64,000 nucleotides of DNA from Deltaproteobacteria bacterium (lineage in GTDB: Bacteria > Desulfobacterota > Binatia > UBA1149 > CAITLU01). The notes under the pieces were generated by a model. The model ran no database searches and was not told the origin of the DNA. It worked only from the letters and a program-made list of their open reading frames with translations. Position numbers and translations under genes: made by a program. Shown here piece by piece: positions 3,414 through 49,888 of this stretch. Location: NCBI GenBank assembly GCA_016218925.1, contig JACRCR010000109.1, positions 42,053 through 106,052 of the forward strand, given 5' to 3'. Every line of letters starts with the position of its first letter. The stretch's first letter is position 1.

Positions 3414-4946
3414 ATGACAGCGGCCCTCAAACTGCGCGTCCGCCTCGCCGGTCGCATCCAGTCGCTGGTGTGGAACGAACTGCCCGCCGACTGCTCGCCG
3501 CCGCGCGCGGCTGTGCAACACGGAGCGAGGGTGGCGTGGCTGGCGGTGCAGGGCTTTCGCAGCGATGCCTGCGCGCTGCGTTCGTGTGCTCTTGCGTATG
3601 CCAGCCTCATGGCCTTCGTTCCGGTACTCGCGGTGTCGTTCGCGTTCTTGCGCGGCTTCGGCTGGAGCGGCCAGCGCCTCGAACCGATGCTGCTCGAGCG
3701 TTTCGCGATGCTGTCTCCCGAAGCGGTCGCGACCATCATCTCGTACATCGATAATACCAGCATTGCCGGTCTTGGCGTCATCGGCGGCCTGTTCGTCGTC
3801 GGTTCCGCACTGTCGGTGATGCGCCAGGTGGAAGACTCGCTCGACCTGATATGGGGCAACCCTCGTCCTCGAGGGCTGGTGCGACGCTCCGCGGATTCGC
3901 TGGTGCTACTGGTAGCAGCGCCGTTGCTGCTCGCGCTCGCGGCCAGCGTGACGGCGGCGCTGCGCACCGCCGTCTACCTCGCGTGGTTGCACGATCTCGG
4001 CGGTGTGGGTCCGGTTCTCAGCGCGCTGACGCGGCTGGTTCCATACGGGGTGGTCTGCGGCCTGTTCACGTTCCTGTACGCGTTCCTTCCCAACGCCGAG
4101 GTGAGGCTGCGGTCGGCGCTGGCGGGCGGAATCGCAGCCGGCATCGCCTGGCAGGTAGCGCAGAACGCCTACGTCGCGTTCCAGTTCGGCATGCGCAACT
4201 ACAATGCCATCTACGGCACGCTGGCGCAGTTGCCGGTGCTGATGCTGTGGATGACCACGAGCTGGTTCATCGTGCTGGCCGGTGCCGAGTTGTCGGCGGT
4301 GGTACAGAACTTCGCCACGCTGCGGCGCGAGCAGCGCGCCACCAAGCCTGGAACCGCGGCGCGCGAGAGGCTGGCCTTGGCGCTGGTGTGCGAACTCGCC
4401 GAGGCGGCCCACGCACGGCGCGCGGCGCCGACCCTCGACCAGCTCTCGCATCTGCTCGACGCGCCGCTGCGCGAGGTGACGGAAGTGGTCGTGAGGCTCT
4501 CGGCTGCCGGGCTCGTGCACATGGGCGGCGACGAACAAGCCTATTGTTTTCTGTCGCTGGCGCCGAGCAGTGTAGCGCTCGAGCGAGTCGTCGCAGTGGC
4601 GAGGGACGAAGGGCAGGGCGCGCGCAGCGGTGGTGTCGAGGCGCCGACCGCCGGCAGCTTGCGCGATCTGCTCGGCGCACTGGAGTCGTCGCGTCGACGC
4701 GCCCTCGGTGCCGCCAGCCTTGCCGACCTCGTCGACCCTCGCGCTGGCCGTCGCGAACGAGTCGGTCCTTCCCAACGGATCGAGCAAGTCGGTCCTTCCC
4801 AACGGATCGAGCAAGTCGATCCTTCTCGACGGATCGAGCAAGTCGATCCTTCCCAACGGATCGAGCGAGTCGATCCTTCTGACGATCGGATCGATCGGGG
4901 CGAGCGGGTCGTTGACGAGGAAGCGGATCCCGTGCTTCGCAACTGA
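3414..4946 (+). CDS. YihY/BrkB (virulence factor BrkB / ribonuclease BN-like) family membrane protein with C-terminal repeat tail
   Basis: Six-TM YihY-like core ('LMAFVPVLAVSFAFL', 'AIYGTLAQLPVLMLWMTTSWFIVLAGAELSA'). ATG at 3414 follows the divergent DppB start. Confidence 0.8.
   Translation: MTAALKLRVRLAGRIQSLVWNELPADCSPPRAAVQHGARVAWLAVQGFRSDACALRSCALAYASLMAFVPVLAVSFAFLRGFGWSGQRLEPMLLERFAMLSPEAVATIISYIDNTSIAGLGVIGGLFVVGSALSVMRQVEDSLDLIWGNPRPRGLVRRSADSLVLLVAAPLLLALAASVTAALRTAVYLAWLHDLGGVGPVLSALTRLVPYGVVCGLFTFLYAFLPNAEVRLRSALAGGIAAGIAWQVAQNAYVAFQFGMRNYNAIYGTLAQLPVLMLWMTTSWFIVLAGAELSAVVQNFATLRREQRATKPGTAARERLALALVCELAEAAHARRAAPTLDQLSHLLDAPLREVTEVVVRLSAAGLVHMGGDEQAYCFLSLAPSSVALERVVAVARDEGQGARSGGVEAPTAGSLRDLLGALESSRRRALGAASLADLVDPRAGRRERVGPSQRIEQVGPSQRIEQVDPSRRIEQVDPSQRIERVDPSDDRIDRGERVVDEEADPVLRN
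4757..4880 (+). repeat. 21-bp tandem repeat (x~5.5) encoding heptad (V/D)PSQRIEQ repeats at the YihY C-terminus
   Basis: 'gtcggtccttcccaacggatcgagcaa' and near-copies were read directly. Confidence 0.8.
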
Positions 4947-4964
4947 CGGCGCCGCTGCCAGTCT

Positions 4965-6551
4965 TCAGCGCTGCGCGGCAAGGTGCGCGAAGGCGAGCCC
5001 GCCGAGATCTCCGGAGGTCGCTGGCTCGAATCCCTCGACGCGCGTCGACAGCACCGTCACGTTGAGAGGCCACCACAGGAACACGTAGGGGAGGCGTGCG
5101 GCGCTGCGGCGCTGGAGCCTGGCGTAGAGTCGTTTCCTTTGCTCGGTCGCGGTCGCGCGGCGCGCCCGGACCGCGAGTCGATCGATCGCCGTGTCGGCGA
5201 AGAAGCCGCGGTTGGCTCCGGCCGGCGCCGTCATCTGCGAATGGAAAGCGACGCGCATCAGGTCGGGGTCACGGATGCCGATCCATGCCAGCGCATACAG
5301 GTCGAAATCGCCGCGCCTGACGTCGTCGAAGAAGGTTCCCCATTCGTTGCTCTCGATGTCGAGCGCGATCCCGACCTCGGCGAGCTGCGCGGCCAGCACT
5401 TCGGCGATGCGGCGTCGCAGCTCGACGGTGCTGGTCCTGTAACGCAGGTGGAAACGCGCTTGCGGTCCGTCTGCGTCGGGATCGGCAAGACCGGCGCGAT
5501 CGAGCAGACGCCGTGCACGTGTTGGATCGTAGTCATAGCGGCGCACGTTGCCTTCGAACGCCCAGTGATGTGGCGGCAACATCCCGCTGGCTACCGTGGC
5601 CTGTCCGCGCAAGACGTGGGCGACGATCGCCTCGCGATCGATCGCGTAGGCGATCGCGCGACGCACGCGCACGTCGCGCAGGAACGGGTTGCGATGATTG
5701 AAGCCGAGATATTGCACGGCATCGTATGGACCGGTAACGACGCGCACGCGTGACTGATTGCGGGCCAGATACGCGACGGCGTCGGGTTCCAGAGCGTTCT
5801 CGACCAGGTCGAGACTGCCGTGACGCAATTCCAGCACGCGCATCGTCGCGTCCGGCACCACTCGAAACGTGATCGCGGCAAGCGTCGGCGATCCGCCGAA
5901 CCATTGCGCGAACGCTGCCAGTTGCACTTCGCCGTCGCGACCGCGCCTGGCTATTCGATAGGGGCCGCAGCCGATTGGATCGTCGACGCCGAGTGCGCCG
6001 GAGGCTTGCGCAGCCGGCAGGATGCCGAGTGTGGCGCCGTCGAAGAACGCGGCGTCGGGTTCGAGCAGAACGAAACGCACGCGATCGGCGGCGACTGCTT
6101 CTACGCTCTTCACCGCGGCCAGTGCCGCGCGTTTGGGTGATGCGAGCGTTGGGTCCAGCACCGAGCGATAGGTGGCCGCGACGTCGCGCGCGGTGACCGG
6201 CTGGCCGTCGTGGAACAGAGCGTTGCGCCTGAGCCGCACCAGCCAGCTTCCGTCGCTCTGGCGCTGCCAGTCCTCGGCGAGCGAGGAGGCGTACCCGCCC
6301 TGCGCGTCGGGTTCCATCAGCGCACAAGACACCAGCGCGCTGATCCGCGAGGCATTGGCGTCGGCGACCAGACGAGGATCGAGGGCGCCCGGCGCGGCCT
6401 CGATTCCGACGCTGAGCGAGCCGCGCGCGTCACTTGGCGAGGAGGGAGAGACTCCGCAGCCGCAGAGCAACGTGGCGGTCACCCAGCAGCATGCCCGCAG
6501 CGTCCCGCGCGGACCTGCCGCGACCTCGACAAAACGTTCCAACCGTCCAGA
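4965..6551 (-). CDS. ABC transporter substrate-binding lipoprotein, family 5 (DppA/OppA-like)
   Basis: SBP_bac_5 motifs ('YRIARRGRDGEVQLAAF', 'PYVFLWWP'). Lipoprotein signal 'TATLLCGCG'. The start is inferred as TTG at about 6551, since no in-frame ATG is present. Confidence 0.75.
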   Translation of the reverse strand, partial: SGRLERFVEVAAGPRGTLRACCWVTATLLCGCGVSPSSPSDARGSLSVGIEAAPGALDPRLVADANASRISALVSCALMEPDAQGGYASSLAEDWQRQSDGSWLVRLRRNALFHDGQPVTARDVAATYRSVLDPTLASPKRAALAAVKSVEAVAADRVRFVLLEPDAAFFDGATLGILPAAQASGALGVDDPIGCGPYRIARRGRDGEVQLAAFAQWFGGSPTLAAITFRVVPDATMRVLELRHGSLDLVENALEPDAVAYLARNQSRVRVVTGPYDAVQYLGFNHRNPFLRDVRVRRAIAYAIDREAIVAHVLRGQATVASGMLPPHHWAFEGNVRRYDYDPTRARRLLDRAGLADPDADGPQARFHLRYRTSTVELRRRIAEVLAAQLAEVGIALDIESNEWGTFFDDVRRGDFDLYALAWIGIRDPDLMRVAFHSQMTAPAGANRGFFADTAIDRLAVRARRATATEQRKRLYARLQRRSAARLPYVFLWWPLNVTVLSTRVEGFEPATSGDLGGLAFAHLAAQR

Positions 6552-44350: not shown

Positions 44351-44668
44351 TTGGCCATGGCCAGCGATTTCGAAGAAATGATGCGCGAACTCCGCCGCGG
44401 CCTCGATGACATCTTCACCAAGGTAGACGGCGCGGAGCACGAAATGCCGCGCGGCGGCCTCTCCACGTTCTTCTCGCCGGTGGATCCATACAACCGCTGG
44501 CCGGTATTCGCGCCGCTGCTCGCGGCCGTCGGCGTCGCGGCGCTGGTGGCTTTTTCCGGTGTCGCGATGGTGGCCTTCACGGCCATGATGCTGGCTCTGT
44601 CGGCGGTCTGGTTCCTGCTCAGCGAAGTGTTCGGCTACGAACTGTCGCTCGCGCCGGTTTCTCGCTAG
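44351..44668 (+). CDS. hypothetical small membrane protein
   Basis: About 105 aa with two C-terminal TM helices. Confidence 0.3.
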   Translation: MAMASDFEEMMRELRRGLDDIFTKVDGAEHEMPRGGLSTFFSPVDPYNRWPVFAPLLAAVGVAALVAFSGVAMVAFTAMMLALSAVWFLLSEVFGYELSLAPVSR

Positions 44669-44707
44669 CCGGCGCTCTCAACCGCCGCTGCCGACGGCGC
44701 CACCACA

Positions 44708-45076
44708 CTAGCGATCCGCGGCGGGCGGATCCAGGGGCCGCGTCCCCGGCGCGTACTTGAGCACCTGGACCTTTTCCATCGTAACCAGACCTTCGGTCAC
44801 CATCTCGTCGAGGACGACCGTCAGGTGTTCGACGTGTTCGGCGGTATCGACGACCTCGATCACGATCGGCAGATCTTCGGAGAGCCGCAGCAGGTGCGTA
44901 GTGTGCAGCACGCTACGAGCGCCGAAGCCTGCGATCCCGTGGAATACCGTGGCACCTGCGAAGCCCTCCTTGCGCAGTCGGGCCAGCAGCGCCATGTGCA
45001 ACGGCTCGTGGTGCCATTTGTCCGACTCTCCGATGAAGATCCTCACCAAGACCTGTTCTCCGCTCAGAACGCGCAT
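44708..45076 (-). CDS. DUF190 (PII-like) protein, typical CrcB companion
   Basis: 'VRIFIGESDKWHHEPLHMALLARLRKEGFAGATVFHGIAGFG' fits DUF190. Downstream of crcB. Confidence 0.7.
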   Translation of the reverse strand: MRVLSGEQVLVRIFIGESDKWHHEPLHMALLARLRKEGFAGATVFHGIAGFGARSVLHTTHLLRLSEDLPIVIEVVDTAEHVEHLTVVLDEMVTEGLVTMEKVQVLKYAPGTRPLDPPAADR

Positions 45077-45100
45077 GAGATGCTCCTTGCCCTGCGTAGC

Positions 45101-45484
45101 TCAGGGGCCGACCAGCCAGCGGGCGGCGGCCCAGCCCGACAGGCAGGCCGCGAGGCAGCCGATCACCGAGACGACGATGTTGGTGACCGCGACCGCCCAG
45201 GCCCCGTCTTGCAGGTACTTCATCGTTTCGTAGCTGAAGGTGGAGTAGGTGGTGAAGCCGCCCATCACGCCGGTGCCCAGCACCAGTCGCAGCGTGGGTG
45301 GTAGCGTCGTCGCTTCGATGCCGAGGTACATGATGATGGCGAGCAGAAACGAACCTATCGTGTTCACCGCCAGAGTGCCGTACGGGAACGAAGTCCCGAA
45401 TACCTGCAGCACCCAGCCCGACAGCAGGTAGCGCGCCCCCGTGCCCACTGCGCCGCCGAGGCAGATCAGCAGAAACCGCGTCAT
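45101..45484 (-). CDS. crcB: fluoride ion channel CrcB/Fluc
   Basis: Four TM helices; 'GTGVMGGFTTYSTFSYE' signature. Confidence 0.85.
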   Translation of the reverse strand: MTRFLLICLGGAVGTGARYLLSGWVLQVFGTSFPYGTLAVNTIGSFLLAIIMYLGIEATTLPPTLRLVLGTGVMGGFTTYSTFSYETMKYLQDGAWAVAVTNIVVSVIGCLAACLSGWAAARWLVGP

Positions 45485-45527
45485 CGCTTCACCTGATCTT
45501 CACGCATCGAGCCATTGCTGCGGCAAT

Positions 45528-46019
45528 CTAACCGAGGTCCCAGCTGAACGGACCGACAGGAGTGGGGATGCCGAGGATCAGGGCGCACGCGGCGGCCGCT
45601 GCGTCGCAGGCCGCGGCATCGTGGAGGTTCTCGTCGAACGCGTCCGTTTCGGGGCGCGGCGCCACCTCGGGCAGCGGGGCCAGCGGGTGACATCCGCTGG
45701 TGAACGCCGCGTTCTCCAGCCGGTACCAGAATATCGGCAAACCCGAGCGCAGCAGTTGCTGTCGCCGGCCTTCGCATAGTGCATCCACGCCGGCAACCAC
45801 TACCGCGCCCGGCGGCGGTGAACACGAGGCCTCGTCGCCGTCGTCTCGCACGACCGCCACACCGGCGGCGCGCAGATACAGACAGGCCTGTGCGACGCCA
45901 CGCGCAGCGCCGAGAACCAGCACGCGAGATCCGAGCAAGCGCTCCTGGCCCTGCGCTCCGATGCCAGGAACGATGACCTGACGCGAGTATCGCTCGAGTT
46001 GCTCGTCGCTCAGCGGCAT
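45528..46019 (-). CDS. short ThiF/MoeB-like (E1-like) protein, 163 aa, probably truncated or minimal
   Basis: 'LERYSRQVIVPGIGAQGQERLLGSRVLVLGAARGV' shows YSRQ and GxGxxG, but the C-terminal half is absent. Confidence 0.5.
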   Translation of the reverse strand: MPLSDEQLERYSRQVIVPGIGAQGQERLLGSRVLVLGAARGVAQACLYLRAAGVAVVRDDGDEASCSPPPGAVVVAGVDALCEGRRQQLLRSGLPIFWYRLENAAFTSGCHPLAPLPEVAPRPETDAFDENLHDAAACDAAAAACALILGIPTPVGPFSWDLG

Positions 46020-46026
46020 CGGCGTG

Positions 46027-46266
46027 CTACTCGATCACGTTTTTCTCGATCGGTTCGACCTTGACGCCCTGACCCGCGATCCACTTGACGGCGGCGTTGA
46101 TCTCGTCCTGGTCGCCTTCGAGTTCGAGTGCGACGATGCCGATGTGGTCGGAGACGGAGGCCGCGCGAATGTTGGTTACCACGCGGAACTTCTGCCCGAC
46201 CCAGTAGATGACGGGTTCCTTGATGCGGTCTTGATTGTAGGTGAGATAGAAGCGTTCGATCGACAT
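46027..46266 (-). CDS. small NIL-domain-like protein
   Basis: 79 aa; 'VTNIRAASV...GIVALELEG' resembles the NIL (MetN C-terminal-like) fold. The assignment is tentative. Confidence 0.4.
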   Translation of the reverse strand: MSIERFYLTYNQDRIKEPVIYWVGQKFRVVTNIRAASVSDHIGIVALELEGDQDEINAAVKWIAGQGVKVEPIEKNVIE

Positions 46267-46275
46267 TGGTTGATC

Positions 46276-47259
46276 CTATATTTCGGCTGCCAGTTGGTGA
46301 CGGTCGCGCCAGCCGAGCCAGAGGTTGGTTGAAAGGTAACGGTCGCCGAAATCGGCGAGGATGACGACGAGGACGCCGCTGGCGAGGTTTCGCGCGACCT
46401 CGAGGGCTCCGACAACCGCCGCTCCCGAGGACTGTCCCAGCAACAGTCCGTCTTTGGCGGCGAGGTGGTAGACCATGTCGTAGGCGTCCTCGGTGCTGAC
46501 GCCGACGACACGGTCGAGTTTTTCCGGGTGCCAGATGCCGGGCACGATCGAAGTGGCCATGTGCTTGAGGCCCTCGATGCCGTGAAAGGAATCGGCCGGC
46601 TCGACCGCGATCGCCTGCACGTTGCGGTTGCGCTCCTTGAGGAAACGTCCGGTGCCCATCACCGTTCCGCTGGTGCCGACGGTCGCCACCAGGTGGGTCA
46701 CGCGCCCGCCGGTCTGCTCCCAGATCTCCGGTCCGGTGGTCAGGTAGTGTGCCTCCGGGTTGGCTTCGTTGTCGTACTGATCGGGCTTGAAGTAGCGCTC
46801 CGGGTCCTGCGCCAGGATCTCGCGGCACAGCAGCAGAGCGCCGTCGGATCCCTCCATCGGACTCGAGTAGACGATCTCGGCATCGTAGGCCTGCAAGACC
46901 CGCTTGCGCTCGCGCGAGACGTTCTCGGGCATCACGAGCCTCACCGGGTAGCCGAGCGCGGCGCCGATCATCGCCAGCGCGATGCCGGTGTTGCCCGAGG
47001 TCGATTCGAGGATCGTCTTGCCGGTGCGCAGTGCGCCGCTCTCGAGACCTCGGCGTACCATGTTCCAGGCTGGACGCGCCTTGACCGAACCGCCCGGGTT
47101 GAAGCCTTCCACCTTGCCGTAGATGACGACTCCCGGTGCGACCTGTTCGCGCAGACAGCGCAGTTCGACCATCGGCGTGTTGCCGATCAAATCGACGACG
47201 CCTAGAGCCTCGGCTGTGGTCGACAGCCGGGGTCTGACTGCGGCGAACGCGCCGTTCAC
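46276..47259 (-). CDS. cysM: cysteine synthase (CysM/CysK family, PLP-dependent)
   Basis: PLP-Lys 'NPGGSVKAR', 'TSGNTGIALA' and 'GTSGT' motifs. GTG start. Confidence 0.85.
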   Translation of the reverse strand: MNGAFAAVRPRLSTTAEALGVVDLIGNTPMVELRCLREQVAPGVVIYGKVEGFNPGGSVKARPAWNMVRRGLESGALRTGKTILESTSGNTGIALAMIGAALGYPVRLVMPENVSRERKRVLQAYDAEIVYSSPMEGSDGALLLCREILAQDPERYFKPDQYDNEANPEAHYLTTGPEIWEQTGGRVTHLVATVGTSGTVMGTGRFLKERNRNVQAIAVEPADSFHGIEGLKHMATSIVPGIWHPEKLDRVVGVSTEDAYDMVYHLAAKDGLLLGQSSGAAVVGALEVARNLASGVLVVILADFGDRYLSTNLWLGWRDRHQLAAEI

Positions 47260-47270
47260 GCCGGTGTACC

Positions 47271-47582
47271 TCAGGCCGCGGCCAGCGGGCTCGCCACGGA
47301 CATGGGCGCGCCGCCTGCGATCGCCGGGACGATGGAAATCTCGTCGCCGTCCTTTACGGCAGAGCCGGTATTGTCGAGGAAACGGATGTCGTCACCGTTG
47401 ACGTAGAGATTGACGAAACGACGGATCGAACCGTCAGCCTCGCAGATCCTCTCGCGCAGCCCCGGGCAATTCTTCTCGAGGTCTTCGAGGATGGCGGCGA
47501 TCGTCGCTCCGTCGGCCGCGACCGCGTCCTTGCCACCGGTGTACTTGCGAAGAGGGGTAGGGATTCTGACCCGAACAGCCAT
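47271..47582 (-). CDS. MoaD/ThiS-family sulfur-carrier protein (CysO-like) with C-terminal extension beyond the Gly-Gly
   Basis: Beta-grasp-sized ORF ending '...ISIVPAIAGG' followed by 12 extra residues 'APMSVASPLAAA'. Confidence 0.65.
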   Translation of the reverse strand: MAVRVRIPTPLRKYTGGKDAVAADGATIAAILEDLEKNCPGLRERICEADGSIRRFVNLYVNGDDIRFLDNTGSAVKDGDEISIVPAIAGGAPMSVASPLAAA

Positions 47583-47663
47583 GATAAACGTTCCTCCTTG
47601 TTGTCGTCTGTTTCGTCGTCGTCATTGTTCGGCGGCTGGCAGTGCCCGCCGCCGAGTCGTCGA

Positions 47664-48923
47664 TCAGGCCGATGCCCGCACCTTGGAGCTCTGCTCGAGC
47701 GTCTGGTAGAGCGCGTCGAACTCTTCGAGACGCGCACCGATGTTGAAAGGCACCGGCACTGCGTCGGTCACGGCCTCCAGCGTCTTGTAGCCGTTGCCCG
47801 TGACGCTGATCACGATCGACTCGTTGCGCGGGATGCGTCCCTGTTCGATCAGCTTCTTGGTCACGGCCACCGTCGTGCCGCCGGCCGGCTCGGTGAAGAT
47901 TCCCTCGGTTCGAGCCAGGAGGCGAATGCCATCGACGATCTCTTTGTCGGTGACGGCTTCGCCCCAACCGCCCGACTTGCGCACGGCGCCGAGCACGTAG
48001 TAGCCATCGGCGGGATTCCCGATCGCGATCGACTTGGCGATGGTGTTGGGCTTGACGGGTTCGATCAGGTCGGCGCCGCGATGCAGAGCGTTCACGACCG
48101 GCGAGCAACCGGCCGCCTGGGCCGTGTAGATCTTCCACGGGGTGTCCTTTACCAGCCCCACTTGCACCAGTTCCTCGAAGGCTTGTGCGACCTTGGGCAG
48201 GATGGTGCCTCCGGCAGTCGGAACGACGATGTGCTGGGGAAGCTTCCAGCCGAGTTGCTCGGCCACTTCGAAGCCGTAGGTCTTGGCACCCTCGGTGTAG
48301 AACGGCCTGAGGTTGATGTTGACGAAGGCCCAGCCGTACTTGTCCGCTATCTCGGTGCACAGACGATTGACGTCGTCGTAGTTTCCGGAGATCGCCACCG
48401 GCGTGGGCTCGTATATCGCCGAACCTATCACCTTGCCGCGCTCGAGGTTGTCGGGAATGAATATGAAGCAGCGAAGCCCGGCGCGCGCGGTGTGGGCCGA
48501 CACCGAGTTGGCGAGGTTGCCGGTGGATGCGCACGAAATCGTGTCGAAGCCGAATTCGATCGCGGCCGAAACGGCCACCGATACCACGCGGTCCTTGTAC
48601 GAGAAGGTGGGATGGTTGCACGAATCGTCCTTGACCCACAACTCTTCGACCCCGAGCACCTCGCCGAGGCGGTCGGCCTTGACCAGCGGGGTGAATCCCG
48701 AGTGCAGGCCGATGCGCGGTTCGCCGGAGACCGGAAGCAGCTCCTTGTAACGCCACAGATTGCGCGGACGCGACGCGATCGTCTTGTGCGACAAGACCCT
48801 CGCGATGGCGTCGTAGTCGTAACCGATCTCGAGAGGTCCGAAACACAACTCGCACACGTGCAGCGGTTTCCAACTGTACGACTCGCCGCACTCGCGGCAT
48901 TTCAGGCCCGTGGTAAAGCTCAT
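47664..48923 (-). CDS. thrC: threonine synthase
   Basis: 'HPTFSYKDRVVSVAVSAAIEFGF' PLP-Lys motif and a good RBS (GGAGG). ATGA overlap with the upstream E1-like gene. Confidence 0.85.
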   Translation of the reverse strand: MSFTTGLKCRECGESYSWKPLHVCELCFGPLEIGYDYDAIARVLSHKTIASRPRNLWRYKELLPVSGEPRIGLHSGFTPLVKADRLGEVLGVEELWVKDDSCNHPTFSYKDRVVSVAVSAAIEFGFDTISCASTGNLANSVSAHTARAGLRCFIFIPDNLERGKVIGSAIYEPTPVAISGNYDDVNRLCTEIADKYGWAFVNINLRPFYTEGAKTYGFEVAEQLGWKLPQHIVVPTAGGTILPKVAQAFEELVQVGLVKDTPWKIYTAQAAGCSPVVNALHRGADLIEPVKPNTIAKSIAIGNPADGYYVLGAVRKSGGWGEAVTDKEIVDGIRLLARTEGIFTEPAGGTTVAVTKKLIEQGRIPRNESIVISVTGNGYKTLEAVTDAVPVPFNIGARLEEFDALYQTLEQSSKVRASA

Positions 48924-49678
48924 GATGCTTGCCTCCTCAGAAACGATTGAGCGGATCCGGCGCGATCGGCGTTGCGATCCTCGCGTGAGCCGCAAAAACA
49001 GTCGGGACTCGGTGGGAAATCGACGTGGCGCATTCGAACTCCGCCGAGTTGATAAATGAACATACGGCCCGCACGCACCCGCCCGGGCTCGAACAGGCGT
49101 CGCAGCGCGGTGATCGCCTGCATCGAGCCGACGACGCCGGCCACCGGCGCCAGGATTCCGAGCGAAGCGCAACCTTCGTTGCCCGACGGGGCAGCCTCGG
49201 GAAACACGCAGGCAAGGCACGCGGAGACGCGCGGCTCGATCAGCATCCATTGCCCGCCGATACGAACCACGCCGCCGTGGACAAGAGGCACGCCGGCTTC
49301 GACGCAGAGGCGGCTGAGCAGGAACTTGGTGCGCGGATCGTCGGTGCCGTCGATGACTATGTCGTGGGCGGCGACCAGCGCCGGACCGCTCGCTTCGTCG
49401 AGGCGCAGTCGCGCAGTTTCCACCGTCGCACCGAAGTCGGCCGCGAGGATCTGCGCGGCGGCTTCGACTTTGGGACGCCCGACGTCCGAGTCGCGGTAGA
49501 GCACCTGACGCTGCAGGTTGGAAACCTCGACTCGGTCGGGGTCCACCAGGGTGAGGCGCAGGTTCTGCGCGAGCCGCGCCGCGCTGCTGGCCAGCGTCCG
49601 CGCCGCAGCGCAGCCGAGCGCGCCCGCACCGACGAGCAGTACGTTTGCGGGACGCGACTTGTGATTCTTCGAGTACAA
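48920..49678 (-). CDS. MoeZ/MoeB/ThiF-family E1-like adenylyltransferase for sulfur-carrier proteins
   Basis: 'VLLVGAGALGCAAA', 'DPDRVEVSNLQRQ' and zinc CxxC...CxxC motifs. The start is inferred as TTG at 49678, immediately after the leader hairpin. Confidence 0.7.
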   Translation of the reverse strand: MYSKNHKSRPANVLLVGAGALGCAAARTLASSAARLAQNLRLTLVDPDRVEVSNLQRQVLYRDSDVGRPKVEAAAQILAADFGATVETARLRLDEASGPALVAAHDIVIDGTDDPRTKFLLSRLCVEAGVPLVHGGVVRIGGQWMLIEPRVSACLACVFPEAAPSGNEGCASLGILAPVAGVVGSMQAITALRRLFEPGRVRAGRMFIYQLGGVRMRHVDFPPSPDCFCGSREDRNADRAGSAQSFLRRQAS

Positions 49679-49711
49679 AAAAGCCTCTTCCTCGGGTGGT
49701 AAGGAAGAGGC
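49675..49711 (-). terminator. intrinsic terminator/attenuator hairpin of the SAM-I riboswitch; 3' stem arm doubles as the SD of the downstream TTG start
   Basis: Stem 9 bp, loop 11 nt, then UUUUUUG. 'GGAAGAGG' lies 7 nt upstream of TTG at 49678. Confidence 0.65.
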
Positions 49712-49850
49712 AAAGCACCAAGGCTCGGTCTCGACCTTATCTTCCACTTCGAATGCTCGCGAAGTGTGGGACTTAGCACCTGCACCCGCCTTGCGGCCGG
49801 CCGGTTGCTGTGGCATCGCAGGGCCCGATCCCTCCGCCACTCTGAATAAG
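49683..49850 (-). promoter_or_regulatory. SAM-I (S-box) riboswitch with terminator-type expression platform
   Basis: Minus-strand leader 'CUUAUUCAGAGUGGCGGAGGGAUCGGGCCCUGCGAUGCCACAGCAACC...GGUGCUAAGUCC...GAAGAUAAGG' carries the S-box core (P1 CUUAUUC/GAAGAUAAG, GGAGGGA...GGCCC, GCAACC, GGUGCUAA.UCC). It is followed by hairpin GCCUCUUCC-N11-GGAAGAGGC and a U6 tract. Confidence 0.75.
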
Positions 49851-49860
49851 GTTGCGTCGC

Positions 49861-49888
49861 TTATAACGGCGCAGGGGGGCGCTGTCAA
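49861..49888 (-). promoter_or_regulatory. sigma70-like promoter for the riboswitch-led operon
   Basis: Minus strand: TTGACA, 17-18 nt spacer, TTATAA/TATAAG. The predicted TSS lies about 5-10 nt upstream of the riboswitch P1. Confidence 0.55.

Follow-up and report, generated by a model that had tools for sequence, protein, structure and literature searches.

On the minus strand of a 64-kb stretch of contig JACRCR010000109.1 (the whole of it hereafter called the window), from the metagenome-assembled genome (MAG) of an uncultured member of the Binatia, a riboswitch of the S-adenosylmethionine-I class (SAM-I, or S-box) precedes a six-gene operon that opens with an E1-type adenylyltransferase, a threonine synthase (ThrC)-like enzyme and a sulfur-carrier protein. 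We consider it likely, from the sequence and its conservation, that this leader works as a SAM-I terminator switch with an additional translational layer, and that it would feedback-repress an operon for an alternative route to homocysteine. The comparison behind this reading covers 80 related loci, one genome per species, with individual loci designated L001 onwards; genes were assigned to families with Pfam and NCBIfam profiles. The database record of the window's ThrC-like protein reads ‘threonine synthase’ from a Deltaproteobacteria MAG, and its nearest relatives in the database are from Candidatus Binatia.

Results

A SAM-I aptamer upstream of the E1 gene

We searched the full window with cmscan against Rfam 15, for this aptamer as well as for other classes. 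The sole match at gathering level was to SAM-I (RF00162), at 49734..49852 on the minus strand, where it scored 77.3 bits (gathering score, 44.4) with an E value of 2e-16 and covered model positions 1-108 of 108. An earlier note on this DNA, made from the letters alone, had placed a SAM-I riboswitch here and named a search with RF00162 as its check; position and class are both borne out, with a score above the gathering threshold. The upper-case consensus positions of the model, i.e. its highly conserved core, are all matched in the cmscan alignment, and a single non-standard pair occurs in P3. The strands of P1 are ACCUUAUU and GAUAAGGU, and the isolated 119-nt aptamer adopts the four-way junction of helices P1-P4 as its minimum-free-energy fold (−47.4 kcal/mol). 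The internal loop of P2 with its GA (GGAGGGA ... CGAUGCC) aligns in sequence to the RF00162 consensus. Across 38 homologous leaders, standard pairs occupy 95.8% of the cells, compared with 38-48% when the partners are slid, a fraction somewhat inflated by the fitting of the alignment to the covariance model. Half of the pairs (15 of 30) have changed on both sides. By profile match, fold and covariation, the segment 49852-49734 is a canonical SAM-I riboswitch, for which the binding of SAM itself is predicted.

A terminator that overlaps the ribosome-binding site and start codon

A terminator scan and folding located an intrinsic terminator hairpin at 49683..49711 on the minus strand, with the sequence GCCUCUUCCUU-ACCACCC-GAGGAAGAGGC followed by UUUUUUG. 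Its stem has 11 bp (10 Watson-Crick and one G-U) and its loop 7 nt, with a hairpin energy of −17.6 kcal/mol. The U6 tract spans 49677..49682, and its last two U together with G49676 make up the TTG start codon of the E1 gene (49676..49678), so that this codon closes the TTTTTTG tract. Direct reading places the Shine-Dalgarno (SD) region GAGGAAGAGG at 49684..49693, wholly within the 3' arm of the terminator; the end of GGAAGAGG lies 5 nt ahead of the TTG. An intrinsic terminator with six U, an SD in its 3' arm and a TTG start had all been recognised in the earlier note; the stem given there as 9 bp is 11 bp long, and the distance to the start codon is 5 nt rather than 7.

Suboptimal folds supply the competing structure. 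In the best terminator-free one, at −21.4 kcal/mol, GUGGAAGAUAAGGU (49747-49734), made up of the P1 3' strand and the 3' end of P4, pairs with GCCUCUUCCUUACCAC (49711-49696), made up of the terminator 5' arm and loop. The same antiterminator helix is present in the minimum-free-energy fold of nascent RNA cut before the terminator 3' arm. In the relatives, moreover, the terminator 5' arms hold CUUCUUAUC-like copies of the P1 5' strand, as in the classical S-box design. The geometry of an S-box-type OFF platform, with a terminator and an antiterminator that competes with P1, is present in the window and conserved in its relatives, and a hairpin with a U-tract after the aptamer is convincing in roughly 29 of the 38 leaders.

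These elements suggest the following mechanism. A sigma-70-type promoter would start the transcript at the first aptamer nucleotide or directly beside it. At high SAM, the ligand would lock P1 and so occupy its 3' strand, upon which the 11-bp hairpin and U6 would form and RNA polymerase would terminate, at a U-tract that already includes the first gene's start codon. At low SAM, the P1 3' strand would instead pair with the terminator 5' arm and loop as an antiterminator, allowing readthrough and leaving the SD of the terminator 3' arm single-stranded; the SAM-stabilised P1 would accordingly be an anti-antiterminator. Because the SD and the TTG lie inside the terminator, full-length mRNA that refolded into the terminator state would be poorly translated at the E1 cistron. 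Judged from this geometry, dual transcriptional and translational control is plausible.

Would a purely translational switch suffice? The hairpin at 49711-49683 would then only mask the SD, the U-run would be a coincidence or no more than a piece of the start region, and SAM would gate ribosomes and not elongation. Translational platforms are common outside Firmicutes, and the window has its SD and start codon inside or beside the hairpin. An actinomycete locus that we found by tblastn of PLSDB, in Nonomuraea gerenzanensis (L081, positions 4816-4973), points the same way: its SAM-I aptamer (68.7 bits) ends 13 nt before the ATG of the ThrC-like gene and no terminator follows, which implies translational control there. 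However, the G+C-rich stem and the 5-8 U after it are conserved in the same roughly 29 of 38 leaders, in most of which 60-100 nt or more separate the stem from the start codon downstream, too far for it to mask an SD. In the subclade to which the window belongs, 6-8 U are kept although the codon needs just two. We therefore regard translational control on its own as unlikely, and retain the terminator switch with its translational layer.

The layout of the window recurs in L001, L003, L004 and L082, the last a syntenic relative of the window that we reached through its homologue of the short E1-like gene (sE1, below). All four read CCUCUUCCUU-loop-GGAAGAGG-U6-8-G with the TTG in frame, whereas 60-100 nt separate the terminator from the start in other Binatia. 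On this comparison the overlap between terminator and initiation region is a derived feature confined to one Binatia subclade (the window, L001, L003, L004 and L082). One aptamer-gene pair thus occurs with three platform layouts: the aptamer abuts the start and lacks a terminator in the actinomycete, the terminator lies far upstream of the start in most phyla, and it overlaps SD and start in the window's subclade.

The position of the start codon also bears on whether the aptamer region might simply be coding, as an N-terminal extension of E1. An open frame of 495 amino acids does run through the leader on the minus strand, from 50407 to 48920, and a gene caller set the E1 start of L082 (L082 3357) at a GTG within the leader, 13 codons upstream of the TTG. 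Yet no ATG or GTG occurs in the E1 frame between the hairpin and the Rossmann motif VLLVGAGALG, where TTG 49678-49676 is the only canonical start, and the match to the ThiF profile begins only at residue 9 after it. Further upstream, the hairpin loop of the window is 1 nt longer than that of L082, which breaks the frame between the two, so that there is no conserved upstream start, the GTG picked in L082 included. The peptides upstream are not conserved, a stop codon lies 5 codons upstream in L009, and neither the Rfam E value of 2e-16 nor the compensatory covariation would be expected of such an extension. We find a coding leader hardly credible, and rejected the 495-residue frame as spurious on the frame shift against L082, the unconserved upstream peptides and the covariation. 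Database E1 proteins of this clade likely carry false N-terminal extensions that mask the riboswitch.

A promoter for the riboswitch leader

A −35 hexamer TTGACA is found on the minus strand at 49883..49888 and, after a 17-nt spacer, a −10 hexamer TATAAG at 49860..49865; the first was identified by direct reading and conservation, the second by direct reading and hexamers in the same register in relatives. TTGAC recurs 35-57 nt 5' of the aptamer in 29 of the 38 leaders, and in L082 as well. In the nearest relatives TTGACA-N17 is followed by TACCCT (L001), TACTCT (L003) or TAGCGT (L004), a pattern of TAnnnT, and the −10 of L082 is TATAAA, which like that of the window has no T at position 6. 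A consensus promoter scanner, which demands a T at this position, reported no promoter for the leader, and the call rests for that reason on direct reading and conservation. The evidence supports a sigma-70-type promoter that belongs to the riboswitch leader; the predicted transcription start is A49853 or A49852, where P1 begins. The promoter proposed in the earlier note, TTGACA-17-TTATAA, stands as a promoter, but its −10 does not: TTATAA lies 16 nt after TTGACA and is the poorer match, and the hexamer at 17 nt is TATAAG.

The operon and the probable identity of the ThrC-like enzyme

The profiles give the minus-strand order as E1, ThrC-like enzyme, ThiS/CysO-like carrier, CysM, NIL-domain protein and short E1-like protein, in agreement with the order and content that the earlier note had listed. 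Its term ‘MoeZ-like’ for the first gene was overstated, however. The E1 gene (48920..49678, minus strand, TTG start) encodes 252 amino acids that match Pfam ThiF (2.8e-52) at profile positions 19-236 and align to residues 30-248 of the 249 of E. coli MoeB, residue 9 of E1 corresponding to MoeB residue 30. It has neither the N-terminal RYSRQ segment nor a rhodanese domain and is, on these alignments, a minimal E1 of the MoeB/ThiF/HcyF type, not of the MoeZ type. The ThrC-like gene (47664..48923, minus strand) overlaps the E1 stop with its ATG (ATGA), has the SD GAGGAGG, and encodes a pyridoxal 5'-phosphate (PLP) enzyme of 419 amino acids with an N-terminal four-cysteine zinc ribbon (Pfam PALP, 2.1e-65).

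The sulfur carrier follows 81 nt downstream, at 47271..47582 on the minus strand, and is a 103-residue protein of the ThiS/MoaD fold, CysO/MetO-like (Pfam ThiS, 3.1e-16), whose closest solved structure is M. tuberculosis CysO (3dwg_C, 7e-24). Its motif PAIAGG, conserved across phyla, ends at residue 91 in the window; across the loci the tail after this motif measures 0-12 or more residues, 12 being the length in the window. Such a carrier gene lies within 400 nt after the ThrC-like gene in 49 of the 80 loci.

The precedent for this gene pair comes from Streptomyces albulus. According to papers that cite Hasebe et al. 2024, homocysteine is made there from O-phosphohomoserine by MetM, a ThrC homologue with 33% identity to B. 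subtilis ThrC (10.64898/2026.09.15.751699), together with the carrier MetO (Hasebe et al. 2024, Appl Environ Microbiol 90:e01247-24; PMC12172450; 10.1101/2024.10.14.618325; 10.64898/2026.09.15.751699), and metM has a SAM riboswitch upstream (PMC12172450). The Nonomuraea locus served as our actinomycete proxy for this system. Its ThrC-like protein has the same zinc ribbon and is 53% identical to that of the window, and its carrier, encoded after the ThrC-like gene, has 91 amino acids, ends in AGG and is 48% identical. By comparison with this proxy rather than with S. albulus sequences, the window pair is very probably an orthologue pair of MetM and MetO.

The database name invites another view, namely that the ThrC-like protein is a genuine threonine synthase, that the operon serves a cysteine pathway of the CysO/CysM type, and that SAM controls the branch point at O-phosphohomoserine. 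TIGR00260 (thrC) indeed scores 271.6 against a cut-off of 167.1, all database names are ‘threonine synthase’, the best solved relative of the carrier is M. tuberculosis CysO and a CysM gene is present. Against these similarities, the alignment with solved threonine synthases (B. subtilis, T. thermophilus, A. aeolicus and M. tuberculosis) starts only near residue 55 of the ThrC-like protein, and the zinc ribbon, which is invariant in the family, is extra relative to them. A second paralogue that is more ThrC-like coexists in several loci, at 25-37% identity in Nitrospirota and Acidobacteriota, and A. aeolicus, the source of the solved threonine synthase 2zsj, is represented by a MAG that also has a 59%-identical member of the ThrC-like family (L064). 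Together with the 53% identity to the SAM-I-linked gene of Nonomuraea, the zinc ribbon and the coexisting paralogues set the ThrC-like gene apart from housekeeping threonine synthase. The carrier follows the gene in those 49 loci often without CysM, the unit of SAM-I, ThrC-like gene and carrier is found also in the actinomycete, as reported for S. albulus, and GapMind 2026 notes that MetM is ‘often misannotated’ as a threonine synthase, counting MoeZ and Mec among the accessory steps (10.1101/2024.10.14.618325). Finally, the logic would be wrong, as SAM-OFF control would cut threonine when methionine is plentiful. We consider a genuine threonine synthase very unlikely.

The operon most likely makes homocysteine by way of a sulfur-carrier protein thiocarboxylate. 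The earlier note had proposed homocysteine or cysteine, made via a sulfur-carrier protein to feed methionine/SAM, and both the MetM/MetO precedent and the Nonomuraea locus support homocysteine. In this pathway the MoeB/ThiF-type E1 would adenylate the C-terminal Gly-Gly of the CysO/MetO-like carrier, and the ThrC-like, MetM-type enzyme would convert the carrier thiocarboxylate and O-phosphohomoserine to homocysteine. CysM may use the same carrier for cysteine. The CysM gene (46276..47259, minus strand) encodes a 327-residue PLP enzyme of the CysM/CysK family, identified by NCBIfam and solved-structure matches: it exceeds the cut-off of TIGR01136 (cysKM; 349.5 bits against 344.15) and falls below that of TIGR01138 (cysM; 365.6 against 394.2), and its best solved match is E. 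coli CysM (2bhs) with 248 bits, versus 200 for the M. tuberculosis O-phosphoserine sulfhydrylase (CysM).

Members of the ThrC-like family with 59-60% identity occur in Aquificota, in L064 (the Aquifex aeolicus MAG) and L072 (Aquificaceae), with the carrier adjacent in L072. Aquifex aeolicus was named in 2018 as an organism without any of the known homocysteine pathways (PMC5764234), a gap that the ThrC-like family may fill.

Conservation of the riboswitch-gene linkage

SAM-I is found at Rfam gathering level in 9 of 11 Binatia loci, on the same strand and 0.85-1 kb upstream of the ThrC-like gene, i.e. before E1 as in the window. We then derived a second covariance model from the SAM-I matches in Binatia loci and ran it on all 80. 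It detected SAM-I upstream on the same strand in 37, distributed over Binatia (12 of the 37), Planctomycetota (10), Acidobacteriota (9), Zetaproteobacteria and relatives (5) and Chloroflexota (1). Outside Binatia the riboswitch usually lies 100-300 nt from the ThrC-like start. When 12 loci that lack SAM-I were checked at the gathering threshold, no other Rfam riboswitch appeared, only a tRNA. In the riboswitch regulon survey of Sun et al. 2013 we found neither thrC nor sulfur-carrier genes mentioned as targets of SAM control.

Another operon architecture was seen in three Acidobacteriota loci (L033, L046 and L066), where about 1.2 kb separate SAM-I from the ThrC-like gene downstream of it; none of the proteins of the window's operon matches the gene in between, and the 3 kb downstream contain no carrier gene.

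Points that weigh against the proposed reading

Several observations count against a SAM-controlled homocysteine operon of the kind proposed. As for the leader, P1 is not formed in the minimum-free-energy fold of the full 201 nt, so that the folding check suggested in the earlier note succeeds for the isolated aptamer and not for the whole leader. This is no argument against the aptamer, because P1 is ligand-dependent and the isolated aptamer folds canonically. The terminator state is also thermodynamically favoured, at −26.8 kcal/mol versus −21.4 for the antiterminator, and switching must therefore be kinetic, as we infer. The −10 hexamer of the window is without the usually conserved final T, and SAM-I is absent in 43 of the 80 related loci, so the linkage is common and not universal.

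As for the pathway, the absence of a rhodanese domain from E1 leaves the route without an evident sulfur donor, and the 12 residues that follow the Gly-Gly of the carrier in the window mean that it would need processing. A search with a regular-expression motif found no open reading frame for a JAMM/Mec-type protease in the window or the Binatia loci; JAMM-type frames (HSHxxxxxxPSxxD) near the operon were present only in six non-Binatia loci. A Mec (JAMM) protease and a rhodanese-bearing E1 may be encoded elsewhere in the genome. The MetM orthology rests on the actinomycete proxy locus and on gene context, and more generally the reading for this uncultured organism was drawn from sequence.

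A possible heteromeric E1

The last gene of the operon, sE1 (45528..46019, minus strand), encodes a miniaturised, degenerate E1 paralogue of 163 amino acids, whose match to E1 profiles is limited to their first ~55 positions. It keeps the segment LSDxQIERYSRQIIVPGIGxxGQxRLL, and GAARGV replaces the glycine-rich ATP loop GAGGLG. The sE1 family comprises 13 clusters of unnamed ‘hypothetical’ proteins without a Pfam domain. Its AlphaFold model (pLDDT 87.7, pTM 0.85) has ThiF, Uba4 and MoeB as best structural matches over its whole length, with a TM score of about 0.65. Importantly, the truncated E1 without RYSRQ co-occurs with a separate small E1-like gene that closes the operon in 10 of 10 informative loci (the window, L001, L003, L004, L005, L006, L009, L013, L018 and L020), and no separate sE1 gene accompanies an E1 that bears RYSRQ, whether in Binatia (L007 and L008) or in all 20 or more non-Binatia E1s. 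As the leader abuts the E1 start, there is no space for the missing segment.

In ThiF and MoeB the corresponding arginines, Arg11 and Arg14, act in trans across the dimer, although both are reportedly dispensable (PMC13139853). It is plausible that sE1 and the truncated catalytic subunit form a heterodimer, to which sE1 would contribute this arginine. We put forward a broader proposal only tentatively, aware that it may well prove wrong: that the sulfur-carrier E1 of the Binatia lineage is heteromeric, with an sE1 of 150-250 amino acids, which lacks the ATP loop but strictly keeps ERYSRQ, giving the arginine of that motif to a truncated catalytic subunit; that both genes stand under one SAM riboswitch, whose terminator gates translation of the catalytic subunit; and that NIL, sometimes fused to the carrier, is a further, unrecognised component of the MetM/MetO system.

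NIL is encoded in the window as a stand-alone protein of 79 amino acids (46027..46266, minus strand; Pfam NIL, 3.7e-12). It is present in 40 of the 80 loci, and in many phyla its gene is conserved next to the ThrC-like/carrier pair. Some loci have a fused carrier, joined to a NIL domain in L043, L056 and L057 (some Planctomycetia) and to an E1 in L065. NIL/ferredoxin proteins are needed also in the unrelated DUF39 homocysteine pathway (PMC5764234), and NIL is not among the MetM/MetO pathway steps listed in GapMind.

Genes downstream of the operon

A crcB gene for a fluoride channel and a DUF190 gene (window positions 45484-44708) come next on the strand of the operon, with gaps of 43 and 24 nt, and their order is conserved in L082. 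We found no convincing internal promoter or terminator in 44400-48950, no fluoride riboswitch at Rfam gathering level, and no terminator between the operon and crcB/DUF190. The two genes may be co-transcribed with the SAM-regulated operon, which would be odd.

Discussion

None of these findings overturns current understanding. The riboswitch class is textbook, and its pairing with an operon of the MetM/MetO type was already reported for Streptomyces in 2024, according to the papers that cite this work. Their value lies first in annotation. Every database record that we saw names the ThrC-like gene ‘threonine synthase’, and the linkage of this gene to the riboswitch, found in six phyla, is independent evidence for a role in methionine synthesis. 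For riboswitch biology, one compact hairpin would be terminator, SD mask and start-codon context at the same time. For metabolism, the ThrC-like family extends to Aquifex and further autotrophs for which, as of 2018, the route to homocysteine was given as unknown (PMC5764234). If the heteromeric E1 proves true, it would give bacteria a counterpart of the arrangement in eukaryotes that combines an inactive with an active adenylation domain.

That arrangement is known from the heterodimeric E1s SAE1-SAE2 and APPBP1-UBA3 and from yeast Tcd1-Tcd2 (PMC13139853), in which, as proposed here, a degenerate subunit keeps the trans-acting N-terminal arginine and the other has the intact ATP site. The putative partner in the window differs in having just 163 amino acids and in being encoded by the last gene of a bacterial operon for a sulfur carrier.

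Among sulfur-transfer systems, that of Wolinella succinogenes (HcyS/HcyF/HcyD/MetY; Krishnamoorthy & Begley 2011, as cited in PMC5764234) delivers the sulfur of homocysteine from the thiocarboxylate of a ThiS-fold carrier, as proposed for the window, and uses an E1 without rhodanese, and its carrier, like that of the window, has extra residues after the Gly-Gly that need removal. The acceptor enzyme sets the two apart: it has a ThrC fold (fold type II, predicted to act on O-phosphohomoserine) in the window and is the O-acetylhomoserine sulfhydrylase MetY in Wolinella; in addition, no protease gene was seen in the window. The CysO-CysM-Mec system of M. tuberculosis with MoeZR (PMC3227635) shares with the window a CysO-like carrier, a PLP enzyme of the CysM family and an E1 that would activate the carrier. 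In contrast to it, the window has no Mec/JAMM gene nearby, its E1 is without rhodanese and its CysM is closer to that of E. coli, and the operon includes a probable MetM-type enzyme and would be controlled by SAM.

A close likeness is that to metM-metO of S. albulus, where, according to the citing papers, a SAM riboswitch likewise precedes a ThrC-homologous homocysteine synthase followed by a carrier of the ThiS/MoaD fold. In the window the riboswitch precedes E1 instead, and the operon adds CysM, NIL and a degenerate E1 paralogue. The carrier of the window has a 12-residue tail, and the organism is known from an uncultured Binatia MAG. The platforms differ as well, at least with respect to the actinomycete proxy: the proxy aptamer abuts the start codon, whereas the terminator of the window overlaps SD and start.

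The proposed regulatory logic, finally, is that of the S-box leaders of B. subtilis met/cys genes such as yitJ and metE, which have the same aptamer family, the same interplay of terminator, antiterminator and anti-antiterminator (P1), and a terminator 5' arm that mimics the P1 5' strand. Classical S-box leaders keep the terminator at a distance, well 5' of the ribosome-binding site. In the window, by contrast, the 3' arm of the terminator is itself the SD, and the start codon closes the U-tract.

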